From positions 1 through 24,122 of the IMG/VR virus record IMGVR_UViG_3300025894_000066: 24,122 nucleotides of DNA; one strand, 5' to 3'. Shown here piece by piece: positions 3,635 to 20,317 of the stretch (position 1 is its first letter; each line of letters starts with the position of its first letter). Source of the DNA: a virus. Lineage: Duplodnaviria > Caudoviricetes. Below the pieces are notes generated by a model. That model had not been told where the DNA came from and ran no database searches. It was given only the letters and a program-made list of their open reading frames with translations. Both the position numbers and the translations under genes were made by a program.

Positions 3635-4063
3635 ATGGTTGAAGTCGTAACAGACGACAAATGGAGAAAACCAATTGGTGATTATCTAAAAAAAAATTGT
3701 CATATATCTGCTGATATAAAAGATGAATTTTCCTATATTGGTTTTGTTGAAAATGAAAAAATATTAGGTGGATTTTTATTTACTGATTATGATGGTCATA
3801 ATATCTATGTTCATTTAGCTATAGAAAGTCCTAGATTATTTACCAGAAAACATATAAGATACGTTTTTGACTACGGTTTTAAACAAATCGGCTGTGGTCG
3901 TATGACAGCAGTTTGTAGAAATGGATACGAACGTAATGAACGTATTTTATCTGGAACAGGTTGGAAAAAAGAAGGCGTAGTTAGACAAGTTATGAAAATA
4001 GATAATAATTTTGTTGATGCGGCTATATACGGTATGTTAAAAGAAGAATGTAAATGGATTTAG
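3635..4063 (+). CDS. GNAT-family (RimJ/RimL-like) acetyltransferase
   Basis: Motifs FDYGFKQIGCGRM, NERILSGTGWKKEGVVRQ and DAAIYGMLKEE match the RimJ/RimL-type GNAT C-terminal pattern. Confidence 0.8.
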   Translation: MVEVVTDDKWRKPIGDYLKKNCHISADIKDEFSYIGFVENEKILGGFLFTDYDGHNIYVHLAIESPRLFTRKHIRYVFDYGFKQIGCGRMTAVCRNGYERNERILSGTGWKKEGVVRQVMKIDNNFVDAAIYGMLKEECKWI

Positions 4064-4412: not shown

Positions 4413-6077
4413 ATGGCATCTTTTGAATATGTAAAAAAACGTCTAGGCTCTATGGAAGAAGATAGAGGAACTTGGGAAACTCATTGGCAAGAAATTCTTG
4501 ACTATGTTATGCCAAGAAAAGCAGACGTTATAACTTTAAGAACTCGTGGTGAAAAAAGAACAGAAGTTTTATATGACAGTACAGCTATTACTGCTAACAA
4601 TTTATTAGCGGCATCATTACAAGGTACACTTACATCTCCATCATTAGCATGGTTCTCAATTAAATTAAGAGATGAAAATCTAAATCAAAATAGAGAAGTT
4701 GCTTTATGGTTAGAAGATACTGCAAAAAGAATGTATGACACTTTTAACGAAACAAATTTTAATACAGAAGTACATGAATTATATCTTGATCTATGCTCAA
4801 TAGGTACAGGTGCAATTTTTGTTGAAGAAGGTAAAAAAGGTTTTGATACAGACGGTATTCATTTTAATTGTTTACATATTGCAGAATATTATATTCAAGA
4901 AAATATAAATGGAAAAGTAGATACACTTTATAGAAAATATAAATTAACAGCTAGACAAGCTGTTCAAGAATTTGGTGAAGAAAATTTAGGTGAAAAAATT
5001 TTAAAAGCGGCAAGAGAAAAACCAGAAAAAAATTTTACATTTATTCATGCTGTAGAACCAACAGAAGATTACGAAAGAGCAACAGGAAAATCTGCAACTA
5101 AATTACCATTCCATTCATGTCATGTTTGTGAGGAAGATAAAATGGTTGTTAGAACAGGTGGTTATAATGAATTCCCATATTTAGTACCACGTTGGTCAAA
5201 AGCAACTGGTGAAATTTTTGGAAGATCACCATCATTTAATGCATTACCAGATATTAAAACTTTAAACAAAGCAGTTGAAATTGGATTAAAAGCATGGGCT
5301 AAAGCAATTGACCCACCACTACTTGTTCAAGATGATGGAGTAATTGGTAGAGTTAGAATGACACCTGCTGGAATTACAGTTGTTAGAAATGACGGTGCTG
5401 TTAAACCATTACAAATTGGTTCTAATTGGCAAATAACTGACATGAAAGAAAATCAATTAAGAACTGCTATTAGACAAGCATTTTATTCAGACCAATTACA
5501 ATTACAAGAAGGCCCACAAATGACAGCAACAGAAGTTCAAGTTAGATATGAACTTATGCAAAGATTACTTGGGCCAACATTAGGTCGTTTCCAAACTGAA
5601 TTTTTAAATCCATTAATTGAAAGAGTATTTGGAATTATGTTTAGAGCAGGTGCTTTAATGCCTGCACCAGATGTTATTCAAGACACTACAATTGATGTAG
5701 AATATGTTGGGCCATTAGCTAGATCACAAAGAATGGAAGAAGCAGTTGCTATAGAAAGATTATATACTTTAGCAATGAATATTGCACAAGTTGATCCTGC
5801 TATTATGGATAATATAGATCACGATAACGCAATTAGAATGAGAGCAAAATTACTTGGTGTACCTAAAACTGTTTTAAGAGGTAAAGATCAAGTTGATGAA
5901 ATGAGAGCCGCACAAGCAGAAGCACAACAACAAGCGGCAATGGCACAACAAGCACAACAAGAAGCACAAGTAGCTAACACACAAGCTGACGCAACTAAAA
6001 AATTAGCAGACCCTAATGTACAATCCGCTATGGGAGATATGGCAGATGATATGGGTATGTCTGATATGATGGGATAA
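4413..6077 (+). CDS. Portal (head-to-tail connector), T7 gp8/BPP-1 type
   Basis: 554 aa; motifs PYLVPRW..GEIFGRSP, DPPLLV, MTATEV..R and EFLNPLIER; Gln/Ala-rich C-terminus; position after terL. Confidence 0.95.
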   Translation: MASFEYVKKRLGSMEEDRGTWETHWQEILDYVMPRKADVITLRTRGEKRTEVLYDSTAITANNLLAASLQGTLTSPSLAWFSIKLRDENLNQNREVALWLEDTAKRMYDTFNETNFNTEVHELYLDLCSIGTGAIFVEEGKKGFDTDGIHFNCLHIAEYYIQENINGKVDTLYRKYKLTARQAVQEFGEENLGEKILKAAREKPEKNFTFIHAVEPTEDYERATGKSATKLPFHSCHVCEEDKMVVRTGGYNEFPYLVPRWSKATGEIFGRSPSFNALPDIKTLNKAVEIGLKAWAKAIDPPLLVQDDGVIGRVRMTPAGITVVRNDGAVKPLQIGSNWQITDMKENQLRTAIRQAFYSDQLQLQEGPQMTATEVQVRYELMQRLLGPTLGRFQTEFLNPLIERVFGIMFRAGALMPAPDVIQDTTIDVEYVGPLARSQRMEEAVAIERLYTLAMNIAQVDPAIMDNIDHDNAIRMRAKLLGVPKTVLRGKDQVDEMRAAQAEAQQQAAMAQQAQQEAQVANTQADATKKLADPNVQSAMGDMADDMGMSDMMG

Positions 6078-6078
6078 T

Positions 6079-6294
6079 ATGGCAGATCAAGATACTGATC
6101 TAAAACAATTAAAACAACAATACAAAATTACATTTTCATCTAAAGAAGGTGAAAAGGTATTAGCAGATTTAACGTCTGCTTATTATCATAGAAGTTCATT
6201 TAAAGAGAACCCCTATGAAACAGCCTTTCGTGAAGGACAACGATCGGTATTAATCAGAATAATCAATCTAATAAAGGAGAATAAAAATGTCTGA
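6079..6294 (+). CDS. Bbp19-like small phage protein
   Basis: FSSKEGEKVLADL...TAFREGQRSV pattern; lies between portal and scaffold. Confidence 0.75.
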   Translation: MADQDTDLKQLKQQYKITFSSKEGEKVLADLTSAYYHRSSFKENPYETAFREGQRSVLIRIINLIKENKNV

Positions 6295-7138
6295 TGAACA
6301 AACGACCACTAATGACAATCCAGCAGTAGAAACTCAAATAGCTGATGCAGTACAAGGCACAGTTAATACAGTTCTTGGATCAGAAAGTGATAATCAAAAT
6401 GATTGGAGATCAACACTTTCAGAAGATTTAAAAAATGATCCAACTTTATCAAACTTTAAAGATGTAGAAAGTCTTGCTAAAACTGTAGTACATCAACAAA
6501 AAGTATTAGGTAGCAGAATACCATTACCTAAAACTGATGAAGAACGTAACGAACTTTATAATAAATTAGGCAGACCAGAAGATGCTAGTAAATATGAAGT
6601 TAATATTCCAAATGAAATGGCAGAATTTATGCCTAAAGAAGATATTGAACAATTTAAAAATGTTGCTCATAAAATTGGATTAAATAACGAACAAGTAAAT
6701 GCATTAATGGAATTTCAAGTTAGTGCAACTAAATCTAGTTTAGATAATCAAGGCGCAATTCTTAATCAAGAAAAAGAAAAATCAACAGAAGTTCTTAAAA
6801 AAGAATGGGGTTATGATTATGATAAAAATGTAAGGGCGGCACAAAGAGCATTAAATGTTTATGGTGATGCAGAATTACAACAACTTTTATCTGAAACATC
6901 TGCTGGAAATAATCCTGCTGTAGTAAAATTTTTAGCAACTATTGGTAAAGAAGTAACAGAAGATATGGCTCAAAATACTACTAATAATAGATTAGCTACA
7001 TCTCCGTTAGATGCTAAAGAAGAAATTAATAATGTTATGGCTGATACAAGTCATGCTTATTTTAATCCATCACACCCAAACCATGAAATTGCTGTAGAAA
7101 AAATGCGACAATTACATGAAAAAGTGTATGGTAAATAA
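6287..7138 (+). CDS. Capsid scaffolding/assembly protein
   Basis: Acidic and helical; KLGRPE and LKKEWG..YD motifs; AAGGAG SD; directly precedes the capsid gene. Confidence 0.82.
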   Translation: MSDEQTTTNDNPAVETQIADAVQGTVNTVLGSESDNQNDWRSTLSEDLKNDPTLSNFKDVESLAKTVVHQQKVLGSRIPLPKTDEERNELYNKLGRPEDASKYEVNIPNEMAEFMPKEDIEQFKNVAHKIGLNNEQVNALMEFQVSATKSSLDNQGAILNQEKEKSTEVLKKEWGYDYDKNVRAAQRALNVYGDAELQQLLSETSAGNNPAVVKFLATIGKEVTEDMAQNTTNNRLATSPLDAKEEINNVMADTSHAYFNPSHPNHEIAVEKMRQLHEKVYGK

Positions 7139-7146
7139 GTCACAAG

Positions 7147-7157
7147 TGTGATATTAT
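7147..7157 (+). promoter_or_regulatory. Putative extended -10 promoter (TGTG-a-TATTAT) for the capsid gene
   Basis: TGn-TAnnnT at the start of the 205-nt intergenic region, about 7 nt before the first leader hairpin. Confidence 0.45.
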
Positions 7158-7164
7158 TACAACA

Positions 7165-7316
7165 ATATATTTGCCCGCAAGGACAACAAATGTATAAGTC
7201 ATGTTGACTATAAAACCGTAGTGATTGTATCGTTATTACAATAAGGTTTCCCAGAAATGGATAAAGACCGATTAATTGGAATATGGTTTAATACATTTGT
7301 ATTATGCTCTCTATTC
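7165..7316 (+). ncRNA. Structured 5' leader of the major capsid gene (cis-regulatory RNA candidate)
   Basis: Series of hairpins read by eye, two of which share a GNRA loop and a C/AYAA internal loop (7165-7195, 7245-7269). Confidence 0.55.
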
Positions 7317-7343
7317 TTAACTTTTAAATAAGGACTAAATAAC

Positions 7344-8201
7344 ATGAGTACACAAATAACAACAGCTTTTGTAGAACAATACAAAAGTAATGTGTTTCAT
7401 CTTGCACAACAAAAAGGTTCAAGGTTAAGAGGTGCGGTTAAATCTGAAACGGTAACTGGTACATCTCATTACTTTGAAAGAATTGGTGCAACTGCGGCAC
7501 AAGTAAGAACAACAAGACATTCTAACACACCTCAAATTGACACGCCTCACTCAAGAAGAAAAGTGACGCTTGCTGATTACGATTGGGCAGATTTAATTGA
7601 CCAAGAGGATAAAGTAAGAATGTTGATTTCACCTCAATCTGAATATGCGAAAGCTGGTGCTTACGCTATGGGTAGAGCAATGGATGACGCAATTATTGCG
7701 GCCGCTTCTGGCAATGCATTTGGTGGAGTAGCTGGTGCTACTTCTGTTGCATTACCTGCTGGTCAAAAAATTGCAGTAGGCACTACTTCTCTAACAGTTG
7801 CAAAACTTATTGCGGCTAAAGAGATTTTAGATGCTTCTGACGTTGATCCAGATGAAACTAAATACTTGGTTTGTTCAGCTAAAGAGATTACTTCTCTATT
7901 AGGTGATGACAAAGTAACTTCTGCTGATTACAATTCAGTAAAAGCACTTGTTGCAGGCCAAATTGATAGTTTCATGGGCTTTAACTTCATCAGAACTGAA
8001 AGAATTGCGGCTTCTGGCGGAGATAATCTAGCACTTGCGTTCACTCAATCAGCTATTGGTCTTGCTCTTGGAAAAGACATTGCTACTAGAATATCTGAAA
8101 GAGATGACAAGAACTACGCAACTCAAGTATTCCTATCTATGACGATTGGTGCTACTAGAGTTGAAGATGAAAAAGTTGTAGAAATCGCTTGTAACGTATA
8201 A
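7344..8201 (+). CDS. Major capsid protein (BPP-1/HTVC010P-like)
   Basis: 285 aa; MSTQITTAFVEQY..LAQQKGSRLR, AMGRAMDDAII and GATRVEDEKVV motifs; TAAGGA SD; more C-ending codons, consistent with high expression. Confidence 0.93.
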   Translation: MSTQITTAFVEQYKSNVFHLAQQKGSRLRGAVKSETVTGTSHYFERIGATAAQVRTTRHSNTPQIDTPHSRRKVTLADYDWADLIDQEDKVRMLISPQSEYAKAGAYAMGRAMDDAIIAAASGNAFGGVAGATSVALPAGQKIAVGTTSLTVAKLIAAKEILDASDVDPDETKYLVCSAKEITSLLGDDKVTSADYNSVKALVAGQIDSFMGFNFIRTERIAASGGDNLALAFTQSAIGLALGKDIATRISERDDKNYATQVFLSMTIGATRVEDEKVVEIACNV

Positions 8202-8230
8202 TATACTTATACTTACAATTTTTTACAAAG

Positions 8231-8254
8231 TGGGGCGTTGAAATATACGCCCCA
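8231..8254 (+). terminator. GC-rich hairpin after the capsid gene (TGGGGCGT-N8-ACGCCCCA); attenuator or mRNA-stabilising stem
   Basis: 8-bp perfect stem with no following U-tract, so at best a leaky terminator. Confidence 0.6.
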
Positions 8255-8275
8255 TACAATATTTAAAAAGGATTT

Positions 8276-8848
8276 ATGGCTACAGAAGTTTCAATTTGTT
8301 CAAACGCATTAAGAAGATTAGGAGATGATCCTATTACATCTCTTACAGATGATACTGAAAGAGCAAGACTTTGTAATTCATTTTATCCAGATGCAAGAGA
8401 TGCAGTATTAAGATTACACACTTGGAACTTTGCAGTTACAAGAGCATCATTAGCACAATTAGCAACAGCACCCGCTTATGGGTTTGCATATCAATATTCA
8501 CTTCCTTCTGATTGTTTAAGAGTATTACAAATGGAAGAACCTCATTTTATTTTTAAAGTAGAAAACGTAGCTACTCACGGTAGAGTATTATTAACAGATG
8601 AAGGTACTGCAAACATTATGTATGTTGCAAGAGTTACTAATACTACTTTAATGGATAGTATGTTTGTTGATACACTTACTGCAAAATTAGCTACAGATTT
8701 AGCTTATCCTGTTACAAATTCTGTTCAATTACAAACTCAAATGCAGAAACTCTATGAATATAAACTTTCGGAAGCCCGTAGTGTTGATGGACAAGAAGGA
8801 TTTATTGATGATCTTGTTTCTGATACATTTACAACTTTCCGAAGATAA
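8276..8848 (+). CDS. Tail tubular protein A (adaptor, T7 gp11-like)
   Basis: ICSNALRRLG, HTWNFA and YQYSLPSDCLRV motifs; position after the capsid gene. Confidence 0.88.
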   Translation: MATEVSICSNALRRLGDDPITSLTDDTERARLCNSFYPDARDAVLRLHTWNFAVTRASLAQLATAPAYGFAYQYSLPSDCLRVLQMEEPHFIFKVENVATHGRVLLTDEGTANIMYVARVTNTTLMDSMFVDTLTAKLATDLAYPVTNSVQLQTQMQKLYEYKLSEARSVDGQEGFIDDLVSDTFTTFRR

Positions 8849-13549: not shown

Positions 13550-16500
13550 ATGAAAATAACAGCTTTACAATTATCACAAGCTGGTTTTGATAACGATACA
13601 ATTAAATCGTATGTTGATAACCAAGTTCCTTTATTAGAAAAAGCAGGTTTTAGTAAAAACGAAATATATAAATCTTACGGTATTACACAAGTACAAAATA
13701 CCCCATTACATGATTTTCACATGATGGAAGATACTACTGCTATTACAGATAATAGTATGACTATAGGTCAAAAATCTAGTTTAATGAAAACTCAAGACCA
13801 AGAAAATGCAAACACTATTAACAGTAGCAAAACAAGTGATGCAAAATACAATCTTAAAAACACTACATTTGATTTACTTAAAAACGAAGATCAAGCTAAA
13901 ATTGTAGAAAAAATTGGTGAAGCATACAAATTATTTAAAGAAGATGATGAAGGTAGAATTGGTTTTATAGATAATTGGATGGAAAATTACTATCCAAATA
14001 TTGCCTATGAAAAGAAAAACTTTATGAATAATCCAGAATTAAGTTTAGCTGAAAGTGCTTTAAATGATGAGCAAGTTAAAATGATAGATGGTCTAACAGC
14101 TAAAGATAAAATATCTGGTAATTTAGGTTTTATTGAAGAAGAAGGTAGGTATGTATTTGACCAAAATTTTGTAGAAGCTGAAAAAGAAAGAAAATTTAAT
14201 GAAAAAATAAATGTATTACATACAGCATTTTCTACAGGTCAAAACACTTTATCATTATTAGAATATACTAAACAAAATTATGGATTTAATGATATGCAAA
14301 ATATGTATCTTAATGAATTCATGTCATTTGTTTCAGCATTAGAAAGTGATAATAAAAATATTTATAATGCAGATGGTAGTGCGGCTGGTTTATTTCAATT
14401 TAGAAAGTCTGGTTTTAGAACTGCAATAAATAGATTTAATAACATTATGACTAGAATGAACCCTAATTATGAATTACCTAATTGGGTTCAAGATGCATTA
14501 GTACACCAAGACCCTACAAGATTATCACCAGATGAACAAAAAGCATTAGCATTAGCTAACTTTTTAGAAATGCCCGCAAGCACAAAGTTTAATCGTGCAG
14601 GTTCAGATGCTTTATTAAAAGCAATTGCAGACGGTGATGTTGATGCAATGAAAGAATTATACATAAAATATCATCATGCTGATTATGAAAAAGTACCAGA
14701 TATAGAAGCAGGAGATGGTCAAGAATATAGACTTGTAGATAATGAAGCATTAAGAGATAGAACGGATAAATATTTTTCTAAATGGGGTACTGATAATTAT
14801 GAATATCAAACAGCGCAATTAGCTTATTGGGGTAATGATAATATAGTTACTAAAGCATTAGAAAAATTACCTGCTAATGCAGGAGATAAATTATTAAATG
14901 CTTTTGGTGGTAAAGGTTATTACAACGTATTTACAAATGGATATGAACAATCTGTAAATGGTGTAATGGATAGATATTATCAAGTATTTATTGATGATCC
15001 TAATGCTGATCCATATGAAGCAATACAAAAAGTATTTATGTATCAAGAACAAAGATTTGATAAAGATATTATTTCTGCGGCTACAACATTAGTTAATGAT
15101 TTACCTTATATGGTAACAGGTTGTTTTGCGGCCGCAGGTACAGCAATAGTTGGTAGTTTAGGTACATCTGCACCTGCTACACCTGTTATATGTGGTGCTG
15201 GTGGTTTTGCATTACCAGAAGTTATGAGATCATCATATATGAGAGCAATAGAAGATAATTATGTAGGATCATTTTCAGAATTTTTAAGTCATTATATGGA
15301 TAAAAAAACAGCAGTAGTTGCAGGTAAATCAGCAGTTATTGGTGGTGCTACATTTGGTGTTGGTGCAAAAGTAAAAGCAGTTACAGGAAGTACAACAGCT
15401 AGACTTGCATCAGAAATAGCTGTTATGACTACTCTAGGGGCGGCTATGGAAGGCCACGTACCTACTTTAAAAGACTTTGCTCATGCTACTGTCTTGGTTT
15501 TTGGAGTACATGGATCAATAAGAGGTATGAGTGTATTTAAAGATATTTATTCACAATATTCAAGACATCCTAGAGATGTTATTAAAGATATGGAAAGTGA
15601 TGTTAGTATAAGAGTTGCAATAGAAAACGGTGAAATACCATCTGTTTATAAACAAGGTTCAGAAACAGTTATTAAAGGATTAGAAAAACAAGCTGATATT
15701 AAATTATTACCACCACCAAAATTTAAAAACAATGAAACTGTAAACATATCTACATCTTCAACAGAAGTTGCTAAAGTTAAAGGTAAAGAAACAATAGGAT
15801 CAGAAAGTGTAATTATTGTTGAAAAACCAAATGGTGCAACAATTCCTGTATTAGAAAGTCAAGTTAGAAAAGCACCTACTAAACCAGTAGAGGTAATAAT
15901 AGAAGGTGATAAAATATTTATTAATCTTAAAAAAGATAATTCATTTAAAGAAAGAAAAGAAAACGGTGAATTTGCGGCAGATATAGTTGAGTTAGTAAAA
16001 GATGCAGAAGGTGTATTTAGAGAAACTAATTTTAAATCTACACCACAAGCAGTTGTAAGAGAAACTGGATCATCTACTAAAGTAGTTACATTAGATGGTA
16101 AAACTATTGCTAATGAAAGTATTACAATTCAAAGTAAATTCTATCCAGAACTAACTAAACTGTTTAATAAAAACCAAACTAAAAAAACAGAATACAAAAA
16201 TGCTAAAGATTTTATCAATAATGAAAGAGGTCAAATATCAAGCAGAAACAAAAAAGCAGAAATACTATTTGCATTAGAAGCAGGTGGTAAATCTAAATTT
16301 CCAGTTGACACTTTAATTGTTAGAGTTGGTAATGAAAATGTAGCAATCAATAGATCAGCTTATGAACAACTAATTAAATTTACAGAAAATGGACAAGTAA
16401 AAACTGCTCAAGTTATGGGTGCAGGTAAAGATAGCCCTATACTATTTTTACATCCAGAAACTAATAAAATTTTAGCTACAATTAAACCAGAGAAAATACA

Positions 16501-19500
16501 AAATGGTGAGATTAATGCACAAGCAACTAATTATTTTGAAAATTTTAAAGAAAAAGAAGGTACATTTTACGATAGAGTAAACAGTAGTAGAGATGGTGAT
16601 AACTGGGGAATACCTAATGATATATTTACACAAACAAAAGGTTTGCCAGCAGATTACTCTACTAATGCGGCCGCATGGAAAGGATTATTTAACTCATCAA
16701 GAGGTTTAGATTTAATTGATCTTGTAGAACTATACAAAGTATTTGTTAAAAAATCACCAGAAGTAAGAAACTTACCAGAAGGTTTAAATGGTTATTTCCA
16801 ATTTAAAGGAAAGAAATCACCTAGAATAGTTATTAACGAAGCATTACAAAAAAACCCAGAACAATTTATGATGACGTTTGCGCATGAATTGGGTCATTTA
16901 ATTGATTATTTACCTAACGGTACTTTAAGTAGAGGTAACATATTAGGTTCAATAGCTACATTAAAAGGCTATATGAATAAATGGATTGACGGTAAAAATG
17001 AAGGCGCAAAACCATTTAGTGCAAAAGAAATAGAGGCAATGAAAAAAGCCGCTATAAAAGAAGCTAAAGAAAAACAAAAAGAAGTTAAAGTAGATTTAGA
17101 AAAATTAGAAATTACACCAGAAACAGTATTACAAATATTTAGAGATGCTGGTGCTAGAGAAAAAATTAATCCAGATTTTTATAATGCATTTGTTAAGTTA
17201 GATGGTGCTGTTAAAAAATTAGTAGTTAGAGATGCATTAAAAGGATTAATGTCAAATCATCTAAAAGCTATTGCAGATAAAATTAATGGTAAACCTAGTG
17301 ATAGTAGATTAACTAATGAAGCATACAAAATCTTTGCTAAAAACTTTGAAAGAGGTTTAAAAGAAAGAAACCTAGTAAACAAAGAATGGATTACAAGTGA
17401 ATTAAAAAGTCTATCAGCTAAATGGAAACCATTTGATAGAAGTGCTAGAGCAGATTACACAGCATATAGAGATGGCCCAAGAGAACTAATGGCTGATTTT
17501 ATGATGGCGTTTATGTTAAGACCACAATGGGTTAAAAACAATGCACCTAGAACTTGGGAAATGTGGATGCATTATATGCACGCTAGACCAGAAGTTAAAG
17601 CAAACTGGGAAAGAATACAAATAGATTTAAAATCTGGATCAGACAAAAGATTAGGTAAAGTAGTTTCAGACATAAGTAATATGTTTAGAGAAACTAATGA
17701 CTTAATGATTGAAAGAATAGAAAAAGATTACACACCTTCTAAAGCAGATATTTTAGGTACAGAAGCAATAGATAACTTTTATTGGATATACAGAAGATTT
17801 AAAGGAACTGGTAATGAAAGATGGCATAGTCCATTAGCAAAAGAATTAAATTGGTCTATTGAAAACTATAGATACCGTCATGCTAAATTAAAAAGATATA
17901 CAGAAGATATGATTAACAAAGTTGTTAAGCCAGCAGAAGAATTGGGATACAACTCAATTGATCTTGGTACTGCATTATTTTTAAGAAACATAGCTGAAAG
18001 TTCTCAAAGAAATAAATTAGTAAATGCATTAGGTATTATGAAAGTTAATCCAGAATTAGCTAAAAAATTAGGTGATAGAACTGCTAAAGAAGTTTATGAC
18101 TATTATGCAAAAATGCATCCAGATTTAATAAATCTAACAAATGAATTTTACAAAGTTAGACAGGAAATGGTTATTCCAGAATTAAAAGAAAGTGGAATGT
18201 ATAGTGCAGAATTAATAGCTAAATTAGAAAACAATAAAGAATACGTAACTTTCAATGTAAGAAAATACTTACTTGAACGTATAGAAAAATATGGGCCAAA
18301 CTCAAGTGCTACAAGATTTTTAAAAGGTTCTAAAGGTTCGTTTGATGACATTATGAATGTATTTAATGCAACACTTGAAAAAGATATGTTGTTATTAGTT
18401 GAAGCTAAAAGACATAGAACAATGGCATTAACTATTAAATGGTTAAAAGAAAACAAACATTGGATGGAACGATATGGTAAAAAACCTTTTGAGCCATCTG
18501 ATAGAATTATTTATAAACCTAAATTTGTTGGAGAAGGTAAATTAGAAAAACCCGCTAAAGGCATGGAACAATTTAGTTATATGAAAGATGGTAAGATGCA
18601 ACATTGGCACGTAAATAAATTTGTTGCACAATCATTTAAAGAAAATCCTAATGGTACATTTTATATGTACAAATTAATGACACAAACTGGTGATGTATTT
18701 AGAAAACTATTTACTGAATATAATCCTGCTTTCTGGCCAATCAACTTGGGTAGAGATTTAAACAGATCAGTTAAATTATTAAAAAATGCTAGATATATTG
18801 ATATAGCTGGAAAAGGTAAAAATTCATTACTTAAATATTATTTCCAAGCAATAAAACCTGCTTATAAATCTATTTTTAAAGATGGTACTGAATTGACTAG
18901 ATGGATGGAAAATGAAGGTTTTTTAATATCTATGAATGAAGGTTATAGAGGTCAAGCTGGAAGTAAAGCATTATTAAAAGATAAAGACCCAGATACATAT
19001 GCGCTTGAAAAATTACTAGGTGATCTAAATAAGAAAAAAGGTTTTGACAAATATTGGAGTTCAACATTTGGATATTTATTTGAAAGTCTTGGTAACTTTG
19101 CAAGAATGTTTGAAAGAACACCTAAAATTGCAGGTGCAATGTTTTTAAAAGATCAAATTAAAAGAGGTGAATTAAAAATGACTGATAAAGAAATGATGTT
19201 AAGAGTTCAATCAGAAGTAGGATCACCAAACTTTTTAAGACAAGGTAAATTAAACGCATTAACTAATAATTTATATTTATACTCTAACGCATTTAAAGAA
19301 GGTTGGAGAGCAGATATAACTAGATTTAAAGAAGCACCTGTATCAGTTGGTAGTAAATTTGTAGCATACAATGTAATTCCTAAAATATTACAAAAATCTA
19401 TGGAAATAGGATTATTTGGTGTTGGTTTAGGTGCAGTTTATAAATATGGTATTTCTGATTGGGATAAAATAAATTACATTCCAATAGTATTAGGTGAAAC

Positions 19501-20317
19501 ACCAGATGGCAGACCAATATATTTAAGAATACCACAAGATGAAACATCAAGATTAATTAATGGTATTTTATACAAAGCAATGAGTATTGGTGATGATGGT
19601 AAAGTTGGTTCATTAGAAACACCTGCTGATTTATTTGGTTATGTAGGATCATCTGGATTACCATCTATGAACCCTGTATTTAGTTTGTTTGCTGATTTAA
19701 TAGGATGGATGAATGGTACTACTCCATATGATGATTTTAGAGGTACAACTGCAATTGATAAAACAACTGATAAAGCAGATGATGCTAGAAAAAACAAAGA
19801 AATATTAAAATGGTTCTTTAATACTTATTCTGGTCAAGGTGTATATAAATTTAAAAGTAATGATTTAAAAGAAGTTACAAATGAATTAGAAAAAGTATTA
19901 GATATACCAGTTATAGGTAGAGTATTAGGTAGATGGGTTAAAATAGGTCAACATCCAGCTATAGGATTTATGGAAAAATCAGAAGGTGGTATTGAACAAT
20001 TTGAAAAAGAAAATGCACAAATAACACTTGATTACAAAGAAGCTGTAGCAAATTTAGTTACAGGAGAACCTTTAACAGATAAACATAAATTGGCTTTAAT
20101 GGTTAGAGGTGAAAGATTAAAGACAAATAAACTACTAATAGAAAGATTATCTCAACAAGCTGGCGGTACTGTATTATTACAAGAAATATTAAGTGAAAAT
20201 GATAGTAAAAAACTAGCTATTAAGATAATGAAGTTGATTGAATTTATTGAAAAAACTGATAATGAGTATCCTATTAACTTTATTAAAAAGGAAAAATCTG
20301 ATAAAATAGAAGAATAA
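13550..20317 (+). CDS. Giant internal virion / polyvalent protein (lysozyme-like transglycosylase motif, HEXXH zincin motif, LPD38-like C-terminus)
   Basis: 2255 aa; ALES...AAGLFQF (E265), Gly/Ala-rich hydrophobic helices, FAHELGH (H1112) and WDKINY..IYLRIPQ near the C-terminus. Confidence 0.78.
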   Translation: MKITALQLSQAGFDNDTIKSYVDNQVPLLEKAGFSKNEIYKSYGITQVQNTPLHDFHMMEDTTAITDNSMTIGQKSSLMKTQDQENANTINSSKTSDAKYNLKNTTFDLLKNEDQAKIVEKIGEAYKLFKEDDEGRIGFIDNWMENYYPNIAYEKKNFMNNPELSLAESALNDEQVKMIDGLTAKDKISGNLGFIEEEGRYVFDQNFVEAEKERKFNEKINVLHTAFSTGQNTLSLLEYTKQNYGFNDMQNMYLNEFMSFVSALESDNKNIYNADGSAAGLFQFRKSGFRTAINRFNNIMTRMNPNYELPNWVQDALVHQDPTRLSPDEQKALALANFLEMPASTKFNRAGSDALLKAIADGDVDAMKELYIKYHHADYEKVPDIEAGDGQEYRLVDNEALRDRTDKYFSKWGTDNYEYQTAQLAYWGNDNIVTKALEKLPANAGDKLLNAFGGKGYYNVFTNGYEQSVNGVMDRYYQVFIDDPNADPYEAIQKVFMYQEQRFDKDIISAATTLVNDLPYMVTGCFAAAGTAIVGSLGTSAPATPVICGAGGFALPEVMRSSYMRAIEDNYVGSFSEFLSHYMDKKTAVVAGKSAVIGGATFGVGAKVKAVTGSTTARLASEIAVMTTLGAAMEGHVPTLKDFAHATVLVFGVHGSIRGMSVFKDIYSQYSRHPRDVIKDMESDVSIRVAIENGEIPSVYKQGSETVIKGLEKQADIKLLPPPKFKNNETVNISTSSTEVAKVKGKETIGSESVIIVEKPNGATIPVLESQVRKAPTKPVEVIIEGDKIFINLKKDNSFKERKENGEFAADIVELVKDAEGVFRETNFKSTPQAVVRETGSSTKVVTLDGKTIANESITIQSKFYPELTKLFNKNQTKKTEYKNAKDFINNERGQISSRNKKAEILFALEAGGKSKFPVDTLIVRVGNENVAINRSAYEQLIKFTENGQVKTAQVMGAGKDSPILFLHPETNKILATIKPEKIQNGEINAQATNYFENFKEKEGTFYDRVNSSRDGDNWGIPNDIFTQTKGLPADYSTNAAAWKGLFNSSRGLDLIDLVELYKVFVKKSPEVRNLPEGLNGYFQFKGKKSPRIVINEALQKNPEQFMMTFAHELGHLIDYLPNGTLSRGNILGSIATLKGYMNKWIDGKNEGAKPFSAKEIEAMKKAAIKEAKEKQKEVKVDLEKLEITPETVLQIFRDAGAREKINPDFYNAFVKLDGAVKKLVVRDALKGLMSNHLKAIADKINGKPSDSRLTNEAYKIFAKNFERGLKERNLVNKEWITSELKSLSAKWKPFDRSARADYTAYRDGPRELMADFMMAFMLRPQWVKNNAPRTWEMWMHYMHARPEVKANWERIQIDLKSGSDKRLGKVVSDISNMFRETNDLMIERIEKDYTPSKADILGTEAIDNFYWIYRRFKGTGNERWHSPLAKELNWSIENYRYRHAKLKRYTEDMINKVVKPAEELGYNSIDLGTALFLRNIAESSQRNKLVNALGIMKVNPELAKKLGDRTAKEVYDYYAKMHPDLINLTNEFYKVRQEMVIPELKESGMYSAELIAKLENNKEYVTFNVRKYLLERIEKYGPNSSATRFLKGSKGSFDDIMNVFNATLEKDMLLLVEAKRHRTMALTIKWLKENKHWMERYGKKPFEPSDRIIYKPKFVGEGKLEKPAKGMEQFSYMKDGKMQHWHVNKFVAQSFKENPNGTFYMYKLMTQTGDVFRKLFTEYNPAFWPINLGRDLNRSVKLLKNARYIDIAGKGKNSLLKYYFQAIKPAYKSIFKDGTELTRWMENEGFLISMNEGYRGQAGSKALLKDKDPDTYALEKLLGDLNKKKGFDKYWSSTFGYLFESLGNFARMFERTPKIAGAMFLKDQIKRGELKMTDKEMMLRVQSEVGSPNFLRQGKLNALTNNLYLYSNAFKEGWRADITRFKEAPVSVGSKFVAYNVIPKILQKSMEIGLFGVGLGAVYKYGISDWDKINYIPIVLGETPDGRPIYLRIPQDETSRLINGILYKAMSIGDDGKVGSLETPADLFGYVGSSGLPSMNPVFSLFADLIGWMNGTTPYDDFRGTTAIDKTTDKADDARKNKEILKWFFNTYSGQGVYKFKSNDLKEVTNELEKVLDIPVIGRVLGRWVKIGQHPAIGFMEKSEGGIEQFEKENAQITLDYKEAVANLVTGEPLTDKHKLALMVRGERLKTNKLLIERLSQQAGGTVLLQEILSENDSKKLAIKIMKLIEFIEKTDNEYPINFIKKEKSDKIEE

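Follow-up and report, generated by a model that had tools for sequence, protein, structure and literature searches.

Two hairpins built on one and the same RNA module lie in the untranslated leader that precedes the major capsid gene in a marine podovirus. We show that this module has covarying base pairs, occurs in two polarities, and is associated with head genes in phages. As far as searched, the module is uncatalogued, and it is far more widespread than could be seen in the original prediction, which was made from the letters of a single stretch of DNA. Both hairpins are genuine and beyond chance. Elements of the same leader that had been overlooked are an extended -10 box, a predicted pseudoknot, and predicted pairings directed against the ribosome site.

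Two copies of a hairpin module in the capsid leader

The window, namely the whole stretch of 24,122 nucleotides analyzed here, represents 24 kb of the genome of an HTVC010P-type podovirus (marine phage), and its IMG/VR record holds no sequence outside the window. The genes are ordered as terminases, portal, Bbp19-like, scaffold-like (6287-7138), major capsid (7344-8201), and tail tubes, and the scaffold-capsid gap of 205 nt holds both RNA units. Among named phages, the capsid protein is closest to that of Pelagibacter phage EXVC032P Baldr (72% identity), and its identity to that of HTVC010P is 56%. In Baldr and HTVC028P, the gene in the position of the scaffold-like gene of the window is annotated as capsid assembly protein. 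The features considered in this study are as follows.

6079..6294, plus strand: Bbp19-like small gene (PF25181, E 2e-13)
6287..7138, plus strand: scaffold-like (capsid assembly) gene, encoding a candidate ligand (phrog_3742, phrog_458)
7149..7157, plus strand: extended -10 box (TG-n-TATTAT), predicted start at about 7163-7165
7165..7195, plus strand: unit 1, with a 9-bp outer stem, a C7174.A7183 wobble, the 3-nt bulge CAA, a C-G/C-G inner stem, and a GCAA loop
7197..7216, plus strand: predicted H-type pseudoknot, with stem 1 (7197-7200/7206-7209), the loop AUGUU, and an A-rich linker (7210-7213)
G7203-C7216, U7204-A7215, and U7205-A7214, plus strand: stem 2 of the predicted pseudoknot (anchored parse, 20 haplotypes)
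7199..7205, plus strand: perfect 7-nt complement of the start-codon region 7341-7347, candidate OFF pairing
7224..7242, plus strand: hairpin P3, with two-sided changes in 6/6 pairs and a conserved CG in its loop (7231-7232); short-form leaders are without P3
7245..7269, plus strand: unit 2, with a 5-bp outer stem, a C7250.A7261 wobble, the 3-nt bulge UAA, a 3-bp inner stem, and a GAAA loop
7278..7317, plus strand: optional long hairpin P5 (-9.3 kcal/mol), gone where the distance from unit 2 to the AUG is 28-40 nt
7318..7334, plus strand: U-rich tract (UAACUUUUA) and Shine-Dalgarno AAGGA (7330-7334), from the sequence
7344..8201, plus strand: major capsid protein gene, the putatively regulated gene (PF19821, E 3e-90; phrog_3437)

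The original prediction had placed two motif copies in the capsid leader, and their coordinates and pairings were confirmed; the further hairpins that it had put at 7197-7209, 7224-7242, and about 7279-7316 are also all present, the last of them as 7278-7317. The folding energy is unremarkable, with z scores of -0.72 (7140-7340) and -1.96 (7164-7272) for the leader and of -1.59 and -0.46 for unit 1 and unit 2 alone. When the gap of 205 nt was scanned for the internal-loop unit, two copies were found, and dinucleotide shuffles of the gap gave two copies in 0 of 2000 cases and one copy in 17 of 2000. The same scanner matched 0-3 times per shuffle in the shuffled 24-kb window (30 shuffles); because lone matches are so common there, the significance rests on the pair of units within the gap.

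The two hairpins had been described as sharing a 1x4 loop. The shared asymmetric loop stands, but it is better read as a Y.R wobble followed by a 3-nt bulge. C.A and U.G wobbles are isosteric, and U-A takes the place of the wobble in two relatives; the invariant core is therefore best read as a C-G pair, a Y.R wobble, and a 3-nt bulge. The first base of the bulge in this reading is C in 58, U in 74, and G in 6 of 138 copies, and would be A if the bulge were read as 4 nt. The GNRA cap, which had also been taken for a retained feature, is found in only 16 of 68 unit-1 copies and 33 of 70 unit-2 copies among the relatives. A dimer of the units through GNRA tetraloop-receptor pairing, which depends on a conserved cap, was hence rejected.

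Several other observations were made in the window. The 3' arm of unit 1 (7187-7195) is perfectly complementary over 9 nt to an inner part of P5 (7291-7299), a match better than that to its own 5' arm; among close relatives, this complementarity is kept in only two loci (L005 and L007) and absent from the others, so that it perhaps reflects a recent template-switching copy. An Acyl-CoA N-acyltransferase-like gene (3635-4063, phrog_4470) lies between terminase and portal, as in BPP-1, and a very large gene (13550-20317, 2255 aa) encodes a probable internal virion protein. Directly 3' of the capsid gene is a strong G+C-rich hairpin (8230-8255) with no U run after it on the plus strand, which may be a 3' stabilizer or a processing site at the junction of the capsid and tail genes.

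Conservation and covariation among relatives

Clade loci (n = 165) were gathered via capsid, scaffold, and a motif, and 163 of them had the full leader, corresponding to 70 distinct leaders. Unit 2 is present in all of the 70 and unit 1 was parsed in 68, while the remaining two have A in place of the bulge C. Together with the covarying pairs, these counts bear out the claim of a conserved plus-strand RNA element in the capsid leader. The conserved part amounts to about 180 nt and runs from the extended -10 box through unit 1, the predicted pseudoknot, a hairpin, and unit 2 to the ribosome site. A covariance model on capsid-upstream regions, one of the checks that the original prediction had proposed, did reveal covariation: 97.8% of 743 cells are paired, as compared with 26-46% when the pairing is slid, and 13 of 22 pairs have two-sided changes, figures that are biased toward structure because the alignment was fitted to structure. 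The model, made from 33 leaders, gave 35 matches in 46 sources, with weak matches in short-form leaders and none in HTVC010P-type or distant phages. In unit 1, two-sided changes were found in all four modelled outer pairs. The outer stem of unit 2 varies mostly from U-A to U.G, which favors plus-strand RNA over a DNA hairpin, in agreement with what had been argued from the G-U pairs of the window. No named Rfam family had been assigned to the motif, and a search with the Rfam 15 covariance models was in keeping with this: the window gave two chance-level matches distant from the leader and nothing at a family threshold within it, and the 12 related loci gave no match.

Between the two units, the pseudoknot is likely to be real in long-form leaders, as judged from compensatory changes in the sequences. 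An anchored parse of 46 long-form leaders, which represent 20 haplotypes, showed the middle pair of stem 2 to be Watson-Crick in 20/20 haplotypes (A-U 13, U-A 4, C-G 3) and the third pair in 14/20; the first pair, which is partly fixed by the parse, has one change from G-C to A-U. In this anchored parse, 54 of 60 stem-2 cells are paired versus 2-22 of 60 when slid, and several different branches of the capsid tree bear the two-sided changes. The model alignment omits stem 2 and shifts the clade of the window by one column relative to the other clades; on that alignment, support is weaker, with stem 2 being 76% paired in the majority register (reached in 0 of 500 shuffles) and 70% paired in the register of the window (55 of 500 shuffles). 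Short-form and HTVC010P-like leaders keep the hairpin and the linker, and their stem 2 consists of 1-2 pairs or A.C mismatches. The exact 17-mer of the pseudoknot was found in 38 stretches of viral contigs, of which four distinct contexts are capsid leaders of the clade and the rest are chance-like. A leader peptide initiated at the RUG that is conserved in the loop of the pseudoknot was rejected, as its frame and length vary among relatives. Also, the conserved CG after the pseudoknot (7217-7218) and that in the loop of P3 (7231-7232) are jointly lost in short-form leaders; a two-pair tertiary contact between them is possible.

Distribution of the module in phages

A scan with a 17-base pattern for the C.A form detected at least 120 viral stretches (estimated 180), of which 100 are distinct and 92 have a callable downstream ORF. 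Among the matches listed, 69 of these 92 ORFs are major capsids, comprising 61 PF19821-type capsids and 8 of the gp10A-like, SU10, or P22-coat type; many of the other C.A-form matches are located within long ORFs and are probably due to chance. In Alteromonas phage ZP6 and Vibrio phage K300, the places of C and the facing AYAA are taken by U and GUAG, and the scan for this U.G form gave 115 distinct contexts, 73 of them with a callable ORF. Major capsids account for 38 of the 73 (21 phrog_3437, 16 phrog_9953, and 1 probably coincidental).

The module is found in forward, reversed, and nested copies on unrelated stems. In 64 of 64 distinct HTVC010P-like leaders, the same small hairpin lies between a unit 1 in reversed and a unit 2 in forward orientation, and compensating changes are seen in the reversed unit 1. 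An additional copy is present in 41 of 55 capsid leaders of the C.A type and 16 of 29 of the U.G type, as compared with about 3 and 2 expected from shuffles. The additional copies almost always match the loop type of their own leader, with 52 C.A to 1 U.G in C.A leaders and 15 U.G to 4 C.A in U.G leaders.

The unit is carried by 11 of 16 deposited relatives and is missing in HTVC028P, Vibrio 1.182.O, Dunaliella virus SI2, YeP5, and APEC. All of eight loci in bacterial genome contigs have it, a count that leaves out one weak ninth locus. Among 116 distinct metagenome contexts, 15 are upstream of PF19821-type capsids, and no recurring cellular gene stands behind the 17-mer in this set. The scaffold and capsid starts of P22, BPP-1, and epsilon15 have no unit, and phiEco32 has one weak match. 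Six contigs have the unit 13-34 nt upstream of an unannotated ORF in the scaffold position, and a major head match follows in five of them. No unit was detected in the scaffold-upstream regions (-400 to +30) of the window clade, where 47 distinct ones were searched.

Some side observations concern individual relatives. A U.G-type unit on the minus strand of locus L468 (2501-2521) precedes a Mu-type head maturation protease gene (phrog_976) by 78 nt; either the module extends past podoviruses or the match may be due to chance. HTVC010P has a small helical ORF of about 60 aa in the scaffold-capsid interval (L081, 927-1103), and like ORFs exist in many relatives, among them L083, L084, L085, and L414; the 3' end of this ORF, which has no Pfam match and no counterpart in the window clade, is overlapped by the reversed unit 1. 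HTVC010P-like leaders (L288-L367) also possess an extra conserved stem-bulge element between the reversed unit 1 and the small hairpin, and its strands, in which some compensating changes occur, could pair with unit 1 or stem 1.

Promoter and transcription

The extended -10 box is present in 65 of the 68 leaders having a parsed unit 1 and lies 15-18 nt before the bulge C of unit 1 in 62 of the 65. With this spacing, unit 1 would form the 5' end of the mRNA, and the transcription start predicted from the sequence at about 7163-7165 would coincide with the edge of unit 1. Eight marine RNA runs from eight studies have contigs over the leader, and a contig bridges the leader and the capsid gene in seven of them; these runs were chosen using the leader stretch, the contigs carry neither strand nor start, and DNA carry-over is possible. 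A G7192A variant that preserves the base pair appears in three runs. The contig starts are scattered (6326, 6999, 7043, 7116, 7119, 7119, 7177, and 7181), without any common end, and no plus-strand terminator was called in 6000-8400. The original prediction had offered a processing signal as one role of the motif, for which we found no evidence. In the wide sets, the -10 box is not enriched upstream of the unit (2/55 C.A-type and 5/29 U.G-type leaders), and a promoter-linked antiterminator was rejected as a general role on this ground.

Alternative pairings of the leader

When the leader was folded together with the start of the gene, the Shine-Dalgarno was often paired with the C-rich strand of a unit. 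Baldr (L082) and two other relatives (L069 and L284) have three different unit-1 loops, each of which pairs with its own Shine-Dalgarno region by 7-9 pairs. Overall, pairing of the unit-1 loop is stronger with the Shine-Dalgarno region of its own leader than with those of other leaders (-4.67 versus -3.82 kcal/mol, 0 of 20000 permutations), and permutations within clades gave 0 and 17 of 20000; the within-clade signal comes mostly from L069, Baldr, and L284 plus one further clade. The loop of unit 2 matches its own Shine-Dalgarno region no better than permuted partners. This covariation of the unit-1 loop suggests a fold switch in the Baldr-containing clade.

In the window itself, the loop of unit 1 is not of the anti-Shine-Dalgarno kind, and the predicted minimum-energy fold contains both units. 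The candidate for closing the ribosome site is instead the pairing of 7199-7205 with 7341-7347, which is mutually exclusive with the pseudoknot and has a predicted probability of 0.75 in a folding model incapable of pseudoknots. Lineages tend to have either the unit-1/Shine-Dalgarno or the pseudoknot-to-AUG pairing (Spearman -0.61, n = 30). The latter covaries only across clades, falls short of significance in the stricter test within clades (3771 of 20000), and has a probability above 0.3 in just 3 of the 46 long-form leaders. The 3' arm of unit 2 is predicted to pair with the Shine-Dalgarno in 28 of 64 HTVC010P-like leaders, and the test of cognate pairs was not significant (1457 of 20000). 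A second OFF helix between the 3' arms of unit 1 and P5 was rejected because of no covariation (8563 of 20000), and so was a small phage RNA complementary to the leader, the longest complement in the window, a partial genome, being 13 nt and alike in shuffles.

The two-unit fold equals the predicted minimum in the window and lies a median of 4.5 kcal/mol above it in the relatives, by models that leave out pseudoknots and non-canonical pairs; there, it would need help to form. With the units forced in 212 capsid leaders, access to the start region went up in 49 and down in 12, with a median shift of at most 0.05 and no matched control.

Discussion

The module is kept in both polarities, on unrelated stems, and before head genes of unrelated phages, on which grounds protein binding is its most likely role; from these sequence patterns, we consider it probable that the module is a protein site. 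Whether the bound protein would be encoded by the phage we judge to be evenly balanced. The agreement of loop types within a phage was counted in favor of a phage-specific ligand, as was the lack of a recurring cellular gene among the 116 metagenome contexts; the agreement could also result from duplication or from differences among hosts. As a universal ligand, the Bbp19-like protein is disfavored: it is absent from 13/13 unit-bearing contigs outside the PF19821 capsid group, four of which are at least 90% complete, and its gene is present in E. coli phage APEC, which is without the unit. Scaffold or capsid is thus left as a candidate. Neither has a clear RNA-binding basic patch, and both are net acidic.

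The reading that we put first, though tentatively and at somewhat less than an even chance, is that free scaffold binds the units, keeps the ribosome site open, and thereby raises the translation of capsid. Both hairpins in the capsid leader would dock a head-assembly protein, most probably free scaffold, and the leader would thereby be kept in a fold with an open ribosome-binding site. In the predicted alternative fold, strands of the leader would pair with the translation start region and close the site; these strands would differ among lineages, namely the unit-1 loop in Baldr-like phages, the 5' segment of the pseudoknot in the window clade, and the 3' arm of unit 2 in HTVC010P-like phages. 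A surplus of unused scaffold would then lead to binding, to the local fold, and to more synthesis of capsid. Activation is favored by the sole directional evidence, and surplus capsid would hardly be a sensible activator; free scaffold is preferred for these reasons. The evidence for a switch is thin in the window, and the absence of the unit from all of the 47 scaffold-upstream regions in the clade also counts against this reading. The original prediction had proposed tandem protein-binding sites, for example for an autoregulation by scaffold or capsid that sets the stoichiometry of head proteins: protein binding is still the most likely role, but simple autoregulation of scaffold is unsupported in the clade by the same 47 regions. 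Repression would be possible instead in leaders whose module is 13-34 nt away from a scaffold start. A more general circuit of head stoichiometry, in which podoviruses with unrelated capsid families reuse one portable module, is a rather unlikely extension; free scaffold would turn capsid on by keeping the anti-ribosome-site strands away, and would shut down its own production in cases where the module is next to the start of scaffold.

Binding of the units by unassembled capsid or scaffold to repress the translation of capsid is unlikely, if of some weight. The protein would nucleate on the pseudoknot and the units and spread over the A/U-rich stretch to the ribosome site in the manner of T4 gp32; the predicted pseudoknot with UUAAA-like and U-rich tracts after it is reminiscent of the T4 gene 32 operator (PMC535899). 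Negative feedback by surplus capsid needs no additional gene, the unit precedes whichever head gene is first, and it can sit as close as 4-34 nt to a start codon. Nonetheless, 28-79 nt separate the end of unit 2 from the AUG in the clade and the median distances from unit to start are 53 and 99 nt in the wide sets, mostly beyond the ribosome footprint, and the anti-Shine-Dalgarno covariation of unit 1 predicts activation upon binding.

It is distinctly unlikely that the module has no dedicated ligand and is a self-folding three-dimensional motif that stiffens a 5' stabilizer and translation enhancer, with the alternative pairings acting as a folding timer by which the ribosome site closes some time after transcription. 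Unit 1 at the predicted 5' end with a fixed spacing from the -10 box would fit such a role, as would local hairpins that form first, a masked fold of lower energy in most relatives, and the U-rich tract before the Shine-Dalgarno. This tract may resemble the T7 gene 10 enhancer. Neither one sequence-specific bulge that persists in both orientations among unrelated capsid families nor matching loop types within a phage would be required of a stabilizer, however, and the wide sets show no enrichment of the -10 box upstream of the unit.

A host factor such as a ribosomal protein, RNA polymerase, or a nuclease, for which the module would be an enhancer, a put-type antiterminator, or a processing site, is quite improbable. 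The promoter-proximal position in the window clade, the long operon downstream, and the presence of the module across many phage groups are consistent with it. No cellular gene recurs in the 116 metagenome contexts (SAR11 host genomes being outside this search), however, and the wide sets have no promoter link; moreover, unit 1 of HTVC010P-like phages is inside an upstream ORF, no terminator was called around the leader, and the RNA contigs lack a common end. Finally, participation of the leader RNA in head assembly, where it would gather scaffold beside capsid-making ribosomes loosely like phi29 prohead RNA, is highly improbable: two or three copies per leader are tied to capsid and scaffold genes only, but there is no terminator or end to release a separate RNA, and contigs run from the leader into capsid in 7/8 RNA runs.

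Comparison with known systems

The scaffolding protein of P22 is autoregulated post-transcriptionally, and to our knowledge, balancing of scaffold and capsid in tailed phages is known only for P22. Activation by free scaffold, the reading preferred here, would share its logic, in that free scaffold senses the balance of head proteins and acts on mRNA. In contrast, the starts of P22 gene 8 and gene 5 are without the unit, and the unit of the window precedes the capsid gene, not the scaffold gene. A P22-type position at the start of the scaffold gene itself was found in 0/47 in the clade and is matched in the six distant contigs described above.

According to PMC535899, the gene 32 operator of T4 and RB69 has a 5' pseudoknot followed by a UUAAA/UAAA-type sequence upstream of the ribosome site, and repression is established for that of T4. 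The layout of a leader pseudoknot, predicted here, and then UUAAA would be shared, as would post-transcriptional control by a phage protein, which is proposed here; on the other hand, the predicted pseudoknot of the capsid leader is far smaller than that in the described operator and is flanked by two wobble-bulge hairpins, and the downstream gene is the major capsid and not a single-stranded-DNA-binding repressor. The leader can be likened to a phage translational operator and is a member of neither the T4 gene 32 nor the P22 type.

The module also recalls the C-loop, which, according to PMC9516175, is an asymmetric internal loop whose longer strand usually has C first, in which two non-canonical pairs form two base triads, and which can serve as a protein site. 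Both have, within a hairpin stem, an internal loop that is asymmetric and whose 3-nt strand ends in A. The first bulge base is C in only 58/138 copies of our module (U 74, G 6), however, and a C.A or U.G wobble flanks the loop on one side, different from the C-loop as described there. The list of common internal-loop motifs in the accessible part of PMC12510878 names none like the module. Structured leaders before head or scaffold-type genes are likewise represented by GP20-a (RF02991), GP20-b (RF03003), and the capsid-linked candidates of PMC10690425. This source reports unnamed RNA candidates before capsid genes and in Pelagibacter phages, and one of these may overlap part of the leader. No published description of the motif was found in the literature searched.

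In conclusion, a short and exactly defined RNA module precedes head genes in HTVC010P-type pelagiphages and many other podoviruses. The cultured phages Baldr, HTVC010P, Skadi, Ralstonia phage DU_RP_II, and Alteromonas phage ZP6 carry it, so that binding and its direction are testable at once. It can further serve to locate head genes in uncultured phages, unannotated scaffolds among them. Activation of a partner's translation by a structural protein would be unusual, if true, and, on the rather unlikely wider reading given above, the most abundant marine phages would possess a general circuit for the stoichiometry of their heads.
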